Shown piece after piece: positions 1 through 3,000 of a stretch of 15,180 nucleotides of DNA (position 1 is its first letter; the number at the start of each line of letters is the position of its first letter). The stretch spans positions 1 through 15,180 of the IMG/VR virus record IMGVR_UViG_2563366825_000027; one strand, 5' to 3'. This DNA comes from a virus. Its lineage: Duplodnaviria > Heunggongvirae > Uroviricota > Caudoviricetes. The position numbers are program-made.

Positions 1-3000
1 ACCCGCAAACCACACTTCCCTTTAAAACGCGTAACATACATTGCCTGCGTTTAACTTTCTTTGAACTCTTGCAGAAAAATGAGAATTCGTGAGTACGATC
101 ACTCAAAATCGCCTGGCAAAAATAAAATCACCCTATAGATGCACAAAAAACGGGCAAAACTACCTGGTTCGCAAAACTGCGTCTAAAGTTAAACCGGGAC
201 CTCGCGAGCAAGGGTGAGACGATGGCGCTTTACACAATTGGTGAAGTGGCGTTGCTTTGTGATATTAATCCTGTCACGTTACGCGCGTGACGCAACATTT
301 TTAAAAATCGACGAAGATCGTCCAGGAGCGCCGTTTTTCAAGGGTTGGATAGATGATTCGTTTACCATGTCGACGAACTTCGACGAATTTCGCCGATAAA
401 AAGTGTCCCATACATGCCCCATTGATGCCCCATAAACAATATCAGGAATTGACACTGGTTATCCATACAGACAAAAATAACACCTGTACATAACCACAGT
501 TACAGGAGGGTGTTATGCGTGTTGAGATCTGTATCGCTAAAGAAAAAATCAGCAAAATGCCAAAAGGTTCTGTTTCTGCCCTGCAGCAAGAAATGCTTCG
601 ACGTGTCAGTAAACGTTATGACGATGTGGACGTGATTGTCAGAGCCGCCAACAATGACAGTCTCACCATTTTAAGAGCTGTAGATAAAGAATCCGCGCAC
701 GAATTTGTTCAGGAAACACTGCAGGAAGCCTGGGAAACCGCTGACGACTGGTTTATTCGGTAAATCTTCTTTACGGGGAGTTAACTTACTCCCCATTTTT
801 TATTGCATGATAATTGCAGCAACGGCACAGAGTGTCACCACACCACCCAGCCACACAAACAGCATGAAGCACATTGCTCCCGCTGTATAACGTTTTCTCC
901 CGTACATACGGCATTTGTCTTTATTCATCATCTGCCCCTGAATCACATGAAGACGCTGCAGGTCCGGTAACACTGAATCACTCCGCACACGCAAGATGTT
1001 TCACGCTCACACCATACAGCCCGTTTTTCGCCATTCCCGTATACAGAAAGGTATTCACCGTCTTCGTGTGAATGCCCATTTCACTGGCAAGGCGACAGGG
1101 TCTCGACTGACGGTAGACATAACCAAACATCACCACCATCTCTGACATCGTCAGCGGACGGGCAACGCTGTTATACGTCCACACACCATTGCGTATGGCA
1201 TCACTTATCTGTTCGCCATCACGGAGTGATTCCGCACCCAGTTGCAGAAAATGTCGTCCCTGAAACATACAGCGCATCAGCCTGCCCAGTAAAACATCAC
1301 AGATTATCAGCCAGGATTCATCAAAGTCCGGGATATAACGGCGGTTCTCCGGCAGGAAAAACTCCCTCGCCAGTATCACACTGTGTTCCTTCAGCAACTG
1401 TTGCAGTCCATATTCCAGGTAGCGGTTCCTTGTGGCCAGAATTACCTTCATCGCAGCACCTTCCTGTTTTTATGCCCCATGAAAAAAAACGGCAGGCAAA
1501 ACTCCTGTGCCTGCCGTCATGCTTCATGTCACTGTCAGCAATTAAAACTCGAAGTTCACACCAACATTCCAGGAGGCATCGCCATCACTGAATGCCACGC
1601 CTGCTTTCGCTGCGGTCTGCTCGTTGAAGCGGTAACCCACACCCACCGCCAGTGCCTGCTGGTCGCTGTAACCACCAACCGCTGCCGTGGCGTTGAATTT
1701 ACCCACACTGTACGGCTGGAACAGACCAGTCAGGGCCGCAGACTGTGCTGCTGCACGCTTCATTTCCTTGTGGTTTTCATTAATCTGGCGCTGCTGGCTG
1801 TCCAGACGTGCTGAATGTTGCTGCAGCGTACGGGTATTGGCTGCAATCGCCTTGCTGTTTTTCTCAATGGATTGCGTGTTACGGGTGACACGGCCATCAA
1901 TGGCACCAACCGCAGCATCAATACGGTCAGTACGACCAGACAGGGCCACCAGACCATCGTTAACAGAAATGGTGTTCTTTGCACCTTCTGCACGGGTCAG
2001 GGTGCCGTCAGAACTCACACCAACAGTGGTGCGATCTTTGATCGATTTATCCAGATCAACGATAGCATCGCTTACACGCGCATTTTTTGGCGCTGTAACA
2101 TCATGTGTATAGCTGCCATCCTCTTCCTGATAAATGGTTGTATCTGCCTGAATGGCTGCAACTACATTTTTTACAGACTCTCGCTCCACTGAGCCTGTTT
2201 CATCAAGGGTAATGTTACCGTTAGCATCGATAGCAAAAGTTGTGTCTTTATTCAACCTATCTATATTGGTAACGATGCGGTTGTATTCCTGCAGAACACC
2301 AGGGCCATCTTTAGCTGCTGCGACAGCGGCATCTGAGCTACCGCCGGAACGGACAGCAGTAACATAGGCTGGCGCTGTGGTTGAAGTTATCTGTTTCGAG
2401 ATTTCTTCTTTTTTCTTAACTATTTCATCAATCTGATTTGCTGATAGATTTTTAATATTCTCAGCTGTCAATCTATTATCATCTACAGGATAAGATATAG
2501 AATTTAAATATATATTTTTTAATTCTTTCTCCATCTGTTTATATTTTGGCTGTTTTTTTATTTGTTCATCAATTAATTTAATCCCAGCATTAAACTCATC
2601 AATGTTGAAGGTCATAAAAGAGCCAATTTCAGTATTAATTGCAGGTATCACGGTCTCATTATTTTTATTAACAACAGATGCAATAATACCATTAACAACA
2701 ACTTTATATTGTCCATTATTAATAGTATAGGTCTCAGCAGCCATAGCTCCCGAACTCACCAGCAACAGTCCGGCAACAGCAGAAGAAAGAATAGTCTTAG
2801 AGAATTTTTTGTTCATCTGATATATCCTGTAATTTCTTTGTATACAAAAAAAGCAACCCTCTCAGACGCACTTCAGATACACTAAAGAAAATCTGATGAC
2901 TGGCCGCTTCCTGTCAGCTTATTCCAGGATTATTCGCAAAAATGAATATAAACTTTTTAGGAATTATCGTACTGTACAGTCGGTGATATCCGTCACCCCC

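Follow-up and report, generated by a model that had tools for sequence, protein, structure and literature searches.

Among the closest described systems are the Salmonella prophages Gifsy-1, -2 and -3, whose repressors are not cleaved by RecA. In these prophages dinI and the antirepressor gene are the first and second genes of an operon regulated by LexA, dinI-antirepressor-irsA (Lemire et al. 2011, PMC3121763). The same work reported LexA boxes ahead of the dinI homologues of Gifsy and an accumulation of DinI after treatment with mitomycin C, and damage-dependent induction was lost when the LexA-box region was replaced by PBAD (PMC3121763). The homologues of the three prophages are LexA-dependent, with an induction by nalidixate of 4.5- to 23-fold (PMC3121763; Merida-Floriano et al., PMC8072944), and they respond to DNA damage without the need of phage repressor cleavage (PMC3121763, PMC8072944). 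Non-polar deletions of dinI had no significant effect on the induction of Gifsy-1 and Gifsy-3, this being the sole test of the kind that we found (PMC3121763). For Klebsiella dinI, occupancy by LexA has been confirmed by ChIP (PMC10907235). For Stx2a phages, it has already been suggested that phage DinI may restrain induction by inhibiting RecA (PMC8456039).

The locus described here belongs to a stretch of 15,180 bases, which is the whole of the DNA analysed and is called the window in what follows. Its features are listed below, from the edge of the prophage to the end of the transcript.

222–290, + strand: 5' fragment of the host gene mlrA (yehV), interrupted by the prophage and given only as context, as a marker of the prophage edge
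271–290, within the mlrA/yehV fragment: att core; the VT1-Sakai record annotates yehV' and the attachment site cctgtcacgttacgcgcgtg
449–454, + strand: −35 hexamer TTGACA of the dinI promoter, from a promoter scan; it lies inside the 'putative promoter' of VT1-Sakai
453–472, no strand assigned: predicted distal LexA box CACTGGTTATCCATACAGAC, with its core CTGG-N8-ACAG at 455–470 and a heterology index (HI) of 11.28
473–478, + strand: −10 hexamer AAAAAT, from the promoter scan
482–501, no strand assigned: predicted proximal LexA box ACCTGTACATAACCACAGTT, with its core CTGT-N8-ACAG at 484–499 and HI 9.52
504–509, + strand: Shine-Dalgarno sequence AGGAGG, read from the sequence, 5 nt 5' of the ATG
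515–763, + strand: dinI-like coding sequence, a phage paralogue of 82 aa in the DinI family
775–804, + strand: intrinsic terminator from a terminator scan, with the hairpin GGGGAGT-TAACTT-ACTCCCC at 775–794 followed by the T-run ATTTTTTATT

We think, with a probability of roughly 0.8, that these features form a self-contained SOS-inducible cassette in a lambdoid E. coli prophage inserted in mlrA/yehV, at the end of the prophage next to att, working by the mechanism set out further below. A locus of this kind is already known from the Stx1 phage VT1-Sakai (Sp15; AP000400), where the dinI homologue is H0001 and the integration site in yehV/mlrA is the same. The 225 bp from att to ATG are near-identical in both, with 3 differences over about 235 aligned positions upstream of the ATG, and VT1-Sakai shares with the window the −35, the −10, both boxes, the ribosome-binding site, and the length and orientation of the gene. 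At two positions, one within the proximal box and one immediately 5' of the −10, it has a T and the window a C. The coding part differs from that of the window past about codon 20, leaving 66% amino-acid identity. Moreover, dinI of VT1-Sakai is followed by a conserved 3' stretch of about 100 nt and by a YkgJ-like ORF annotated as co-transcribed, whereas the gene in the window meets a terminator immediately. The AP000400 record names the gene 'DNA-damage-inducible protein I', places a 'putative promoter of H0001 and H0002 genes' on what is 449–477/478 of the window, and marks a 'LexA protein / putative SOS box' on what is 482–501; it annotates the proximal box only and leaves the distal one unannotated. 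For the dinI homologue of Sp15/CP-933V in particular, a literature search turned up no transcript data.

The Gifsy genes resemble that of the window in that a prophage DinI-family gene comes directly after a LexA box overlapping the promoter, and the Gifsy product, of 77 aa, is 37.5% identical to the 82-aa protein. The differences are in the layout: Gifsy dinI has one strong box (HI 4.2, 19 nt from the ATG) and the window gene two, and Gifsy dinI belongs to the early region, with the induction-driving antirepressor behind it, whereas the window gene, at the end of the prophage, is monocistronic. The chromosomal dinI of E. coli K-12 (b1061; PDB 1GHH) has the family, the length and the C-terminal helix in common with the phage gene. 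Its LexA box also falls between promoter and ribosome-binding site, and it begins with ACCTGTA, as the proximal box of the phage does, but it is a single box overlapping the −10, while in the phage gene there is a box on either side of that hexamer. A further likeness is that to Tum of coliphage 186, a LexA-controlled phage gene whose C-terminal half has DinI-like sequence (PMC3121763); Tum, however, is a protein of 146 aa with an antirepressor half at its N-terminus, and the window protein has no such N-terminal extension.

The position of the gene within a prophage, which the first-pass annotation had proposed, is borne out by the neighbouring sequence. The ATG is 225 bp from the att core in mlrA/yehV, on the prophage side, and window positions 222–290 equal the VT1-Sakai record except for one SNP. 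From 290 to 1000 the window is 100% identical to Escherichia phage PhiR5_1 (PV340545), a record that was submitted as a complete phage genome and gives E. coli C as the host, and 98–99.9% identical to about 15 complete E. coli genomes. Of 5,426 complete E. coli genomes, 757 have a match; the match-positive genomes carry 2 copies at the median and 6 at most. In the closest genome (H1) the matching region holds btsS/yehU and a partial CDS, and the prophage of that genome encodes a LexA-family repressor of CI type.

The assignment of the open reading frame (ATG at 515, stop at 763) to the DinI family, also proposed at first pass, holds against four kinds of comparison. The protein matches Pfam PF06183 over profile positions 1–63 of 63 (E=4.5e-16; 59.4 bits against a gathering cut-off of 24.2), a match over the full domain. 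It is a small single-domain protein of about 80 aa and aligns end to end with the solved structure of E. coli DinI (PDB 1GHH/7YWA; phmmer E=1e-11, query 1–81 against chain 1–79), to which it is 39% identical by BLASTP. In PHROGs it matches phrog_189, 'RecA filament binding protein DinI' (E=1.3e-25), covering only positions 71–149 of a profile of 151 positions. The RefSeq name is 'DinI-like family protein'. The score of 66.7 bits stays under the cut-off of 111 of the NCBIfam model NF007893, an equivalog for chromosomal DinI, and we therefore treat the protein as a phage paralogue and not as the chromosomal orthologue. An acidic C-terminal helix ending in an ADDWF motif has been implicated in RecA binding (Voloshin et al. 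2001, in the account given by PMC3121763). In the alignment the C-terminal helix of the phage protein is nearly the same as that of E. coli DinI, LQETWESADDWF, and each protein counts 8 acidic residues in the last 25 positions or so; at the level of sequence, the phage protein has the acidic helix and motif. It would most likely bind RecA filaments through this conserved helix, although the identity to E. coli DinI of only 39% and the score under the equivalog cut-off make this an inference.

Upstream of the gene, the first-pass annotation had noted a CTGT-N8-ACAG motif at 484–499, between a TTGACA −35 (449–454) and an AGGAGG Shine-Dalgarno sequence (504–509), and all of these coordinates are correct. 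The motif, CTGTACATAACCACAG, is the core of the proximal box. The promoter scan returned TTGACA, a spacer of 18 nt and AAAAAT, with 10 of 12 matches. A second box, which the first-pass annotation had missed, is 29 bp upstream of the proximal one and exactly occupies the spacer between the −35 and the −10; its right half is identical to the right half of the sulA operator. Transcription is predicted to start near 485, under the proximal box. Relative to this promoter, itself a prediction, one box is in the spacer and the other over the predicted +1, so bound LexA at either the distal or the proximal position would let RNA polymerase be blocked. The reading of the motif as a LexA operator is supported by score, position and conservation, but it has to be amended in that there are two operators rather than one and that both are weaker than those of the relatives.

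From the homology to the tested Gifsy and Klebsiella dinI promoters, LexA would be expected to bind these sites in vivo, and the cassette may then work as follows. In an undamaged lysogen, dimers of host LexA would sit on both operators and RNA polymerase would be blocked at TTGACA-18-AAAAAT. Upon DNA damage, active RecA would lead to self-cleavage of LexA, and the promoter would fire independently of the phage repressor. The product would be a monocistronic mRNA of about 300 nt ending at the hairpin at 775–804. The 82-aa paralogue made from it would add to the dose of host DinI, and could in this way modulate the stability of RecA filaments and their co-protease activity.

The strength of the boxes was estimated with a LexA matrix, symmetrised and reconstructed from 29 operators of E. 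coli K-12, whose HI values are approximate. The operators follow the lists given by Lewis et al. (1994) and by Fernandez de Henestrosa et al. (2000); the K-12 dinI operator alone, among the 29, was re-read from the MG1655 sequence. On this matrix the 20-mer at 482–501 has HI 9.52 (15.1 bits) and the top score among all window positions, and the 20-mer at 453–472, with HI 11.28 (12.1 bits), ranks second. Known K-12 operators span HI 1.9–11.3 on the same matrix, including recN3 at 9.65, ybfE at 10.02 and polB at 11.27, which puts the proximal box among the weakest of the operators known to be functional. The matrix presumably runs about 0–2.5 units below the published values for known sites, and on the published scale both boxes would probably be 1–2 units higher, the proximal one at about 10–12. 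The matrix consensus is the same as the published one, TACTG(TA)5CAGTA, quoted in PMC6590174; the supplements of PMC8072944, in which we looked for an independent list of LexA sites, contained primers only. Both boxes match a LexA operator within the precision of these approximate values, since HI 9.52 and 11.28 lie within the K-12 range and below the working limit of about 15 quoted for LexA sites in PMC11002266. The HI distribution of K-12 is bimodal with peaks at 7.3 and 22.3 (PMC12527982), and at about 10–12 the proximal box would probably fall on its low-HI side.

Other phage dinI loci show what is conserved in this promoter. Viral contigs and species-representative genomes were scanned at the protein level; of the 84 loci obtained, 57 have usable upstream DNA, and these collapse to 27–30 distinct upstream variants depending on the length compared (27 at 123 nt). 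The GTDB species-representative part of the scan contributed 4 loci, all from E. coli or Shigella, and added no taxonomic breadth. The operators are conserved in these orthologous promoters: TTGA(C/T)A, AAAAAT and the distal and proximal boxes are retained by all 27 variants, with TTGA and AAAAAT invariant. The CTG/CAG triplets are essentially invariant too, the one exception being in one distal box, and the proximal box keeps CTGTA and ACAG in all relatives. Upstream of the −35 there are several apparently unrelated sequence types, and homology begins exactly at the −35, so conservation begins at the promoter. In most relatives both boxes are strong, TACTGTATACAAACACAGTA with HI 4.8 at 13 nt and CACTGTTTATCCATACAGTT with HI 5.6 at 41 nt before the ATG; the latter is the sequence found at the distal position, where HI ranges over 3.7–6.4.

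The conservation of LexA boxes reaches well beyond this subgroup. Among 50,697 phage records searched with tblastn, 133 have DinI homologues, in phages of Escherichia, Klebsiella, Salmonella, Yersinia, Citrobacter and Aeromonas. Six distant loci were fetched (Gifsy-2, two Klebsiella phages, Aeromonas pAEv1818, Citrobacter Chris1 and Salmonella FSL SP-016). In all of them there is a single strong LexA box, with HI 1.6–4.2 and 15–19 nt before the ATG, and in six of six that box is the top 20-mer of the fetched locus. The known box of chromosomal K-12 dinI, ACCTGTATAAATAACCAGTA, has HI 4.5 and lies 19 nt before the ATG. The boxes in the distant phage and K-12 promoters suggest that LexA control is a near-universal companion of dinI genes, and the layout with two boxes seems specific to the subgroup of 82-aa dinI genes in lambdoid and Stx phages of E. 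coli.

Within this set, the operators of the window are the weakest among the relatives examined (9.5 and 11.3, against 4–6 in most), owing to a few changes. The sub-lineage integrating in yehV/mlrA, to which the window belongs, has CTGG in the distal box and an insertion of 1 nt that converts TACTGT into ACCTGT. In addition, the spacer of the proximal box in the window has C for T (AACCACAG), in common with the locus L003, and the base just 5' of AAAAAT is C in the window and in L010 but T in the other 25 variants. The L003 protein is 100% identical to the window protein, but its gene lies behind stronger boxes, with HI 7.5 for the proximal and 3.7 for the distal one. It could then be argued that the operators are decaying in the window allele, the gene being leaky or nearly constitutive and LexA control largely lost in the lineage. 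The HI values, the strength of the boxes before an identical protein in L003, the CTGG core in place of CTGT and the insertion would all agree with this, and yet we consider it rather unlikely. The K-12 operators recN3, ybfE and polB are functional at similar scores on the same matrix, and both boxes of the window still have intact CTG/CAG contact triplets. CTGG and ACCTGT occur throughout the yehV-type family, VT1-Sakai among them, which makes them old changes that have been retained. Besides, two operators in one promoter offset the weakness of each, and the identical sequence is carried by PhiR5_1, a phage deposited as a complete genome.

The self-contained cassette that we favour also agrees with the downstream region. 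The terminator begins 12 nt past the dinI stop codon, with an RNA fold of −15.1 kcal/mol (z = −3.7 against shuffles), and an ORF search of the window found no credible + strand ORF downstream of the gene. The next genes, on the opposite strand, encode hypothetical proteins of 64 aa and 157 aa and then a protein with a YadA-like anchor. An immediate terminator and the lack of a downstream + strand gene make the cassette monocistronic, and for the same reasons a Gifsy-like operon (gfoA/gftA type), with a co-transcribed antirepressor or a small ORF 3' of dinI, was rejected. It is therefore highly improbable that dinI here opens an induction operon under LexA control, of the kind seen in Gifsy or with Tum in phage 186, in which the box would control an antirepressor that triggers prophage induction. 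Such an arrangement would have in its favour the small ORF found about 40–110 nt after dinI in distant phage loci, and the partial coverage of the phrog_189 profile, but the window protein is of DinI length and the strong terminator separates it from genes that run the other way. The window does have an Ant-type antirepressor; it lies 10 kb from the dinI-like gene, in a P22 immI-like module with sar RNA. A matrix scan found no LexA-like site ahead of this ant, the best nearby 20-mer (HI 14.35) being downstream of it.

CTGT-N8-ACAG occurs once in the 15,180 bases, at 484–499, where shuffled windows give 0.20 on expectation and 37 of 200 contain at least one. With the full matrix, a site as good as 482–501 appeared anywhere in 8 of 300 first-order Markov-randomised windows and in none of 2000 randomisations of the 225-bp intergenic stretch, and two such sites 16–60 bp apart appeared in none of 300 random windows. 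A reading in which the palindrome arose by chance, or serves a phage-encoded protein instead of LexA as operator, is hardly tenable, for in spite of the frequency of the bare motif in shuffled DNA it would leave aside the full-matrix score, the position, the paired second site, the conservation across unrelated upstream contexts, and the presence of the same motif before dinI both in the E. coli chromosome and in phages from five genera.

Taken as a whole, the original observation is confirmed and its interpretation supported, and the locus is an ordinary one that was already known, as the near-identical promoter is annotated in VT1-Sakai and homologues have been tested. It has little importance beyond correct annotation, being a textbook prophage accessory gene wired into the host SOS regulon, of a very common kind. 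What the present analysis adds is the second, previously unannotated operator, the conservation of the promoter-operator block as a module, and the finding that the operators of the window allele are the weakest of the set. It had also been suggested that the DinI homologue could act on RecA during induction and feed back on the cleavage of the prophage repressor; we regard this feedback as speculation, any effect of phage DinI on prophage induction being one that we infer. In our opinion, the locus is a convenient handle on what phage DinI does for the phage or the lysogen.

A more ambitious view would be that the conserved tandem operators, 28–29 bp apart with one in the spacer and one over +1, are a tuned dosage device that biases RecA and shifts the threshold of prophage induction, which we find distinctly doubtful. 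If it were true, alleles with strong boxes would fire only late in severe SOS, while alleles with weak boxes, such as that of the window, would fire early or be leaky. The extra DinI would bias the co-protease activity of RecA and so shift the induction threshold of its own prophage or of co-resident prophages of CI type. Allelic variation in the boxes would then contribute to differences between strains in spontaneous induction, for instance in Stx release. Work on the induction threshold of Stx phages might be helped by the second operator, by the spread of operator strength and by the untranslated element that relatives have 3' of dinI.

An Rfam search of the window and three related loci gave nothing in or adjoining the dinI cassette; elsewhere in the window, its matches were sar and sok only. 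The 3' element itself is a conserved untranslated stretch of about 100 nt that follows dinI in many relatives and that the window does not have. In a covariation check its first stem proved invariant, and only the terminator stem carries a few compensatory changes.

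Compared with L001, one of the dinI-homologue loci, the dinI gene of the window contains a breakpoint of mosaic type, which separates 515-575 from 576-763. Up to about codon 20, and in the promoter, the sequence is nearly the same as that of the Stx1 phage VT1-Sakai, and past this point the gene is much more diverged from that phage, with 66% amino-acid identity over the whole protein. Judging from these sequences, the dinI promoter-operator block appears to recombine as one unit.

Among the related loci that were fetched, a highly conserved untranslated stretch follows dinI at 72 places, with these examples:

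L001, 1975-2085
L025, 1750-1860
L033, 1750-1865

The stretch, ...GGCTGGAAATCATTCAATACTCGCACTATCGAAAGTTCACCAGCC, is followed by a terminator hairpin of variable sequence, and it is absent from the window. Its conservation exceeds that of the dinI coding sequence, and this suggests a small RNA derived from the 3'-UTR in the relatives, for which DinR of Klebsiella provides a comparison case (PMC10907235). The first stem is invariant and hence uninformative about covariation, the terminator stem has a few compensatory changes, and no Rfam match to the stretch was obtained in a search of the window and three related loci.

Between dinI and the tail-fibre assembly gene, the window carries three cargo genes:

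within 800-2816, minus strand: protein of 424 aa, perhaps an Eib-type adhesin, that carries a YadA-like membrane anchor (PF03895, E=1.3e-16)
within 800-2816, minus strand: 157-aa protein, phrog_6585 (function unannotated)
within 800-2816, minus strand: 64-aa hydrophobic protein, phrog_9340

Between tail gene J and the tail fibre there is a match to an antitoxin RNA:

5665-5822, minus strand: sok (Rfam RF01794, 59.6 bits, barely over the gathering score of 59)

A Hok/Gef protein is annotated at the equivalent position in H1, the closest genome, and lom in the Escherichia phage PhiR5_1. The element looks like a hok/sok toxin-antitoxin cassette.

A module similar to immI of P22 interrupts the tail genes between K and L at 11054-13066, and H1 is devoid of it:

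11054-11968, minus strand: Ant antirepressor (phrog_245, E=5.6e-103)
11970-12036, plus strand: sar antisense RNA (Rfam RF00262, 69.4 bits, gathering score 43)
12031-12294, minus strand: Arc-like ribbon-helix-helix ORF
12258-12530, plus strand: second, divergent ribbon-helix-helix ORF
12530-13066, plus strand: ClpP/S49-like protease ORF

Two further genes were observed:

3891-5393, minus strand: tail-fibre ORF of 500 aa, with collagen-like G-x-y repeats in long tracts
14017-15180, minus strand: full-length OmpC-like porin gene, 387 aa

The porin gene lies among the clustered tail genes, upstream of the one for minor tail protein L. In H1 the same gene is named 'porin OmpC' by RefSeq and is located between L and a putative tail protein M, which is labelled only 'phage tail protein' in RefSeq and is here taken to be M.
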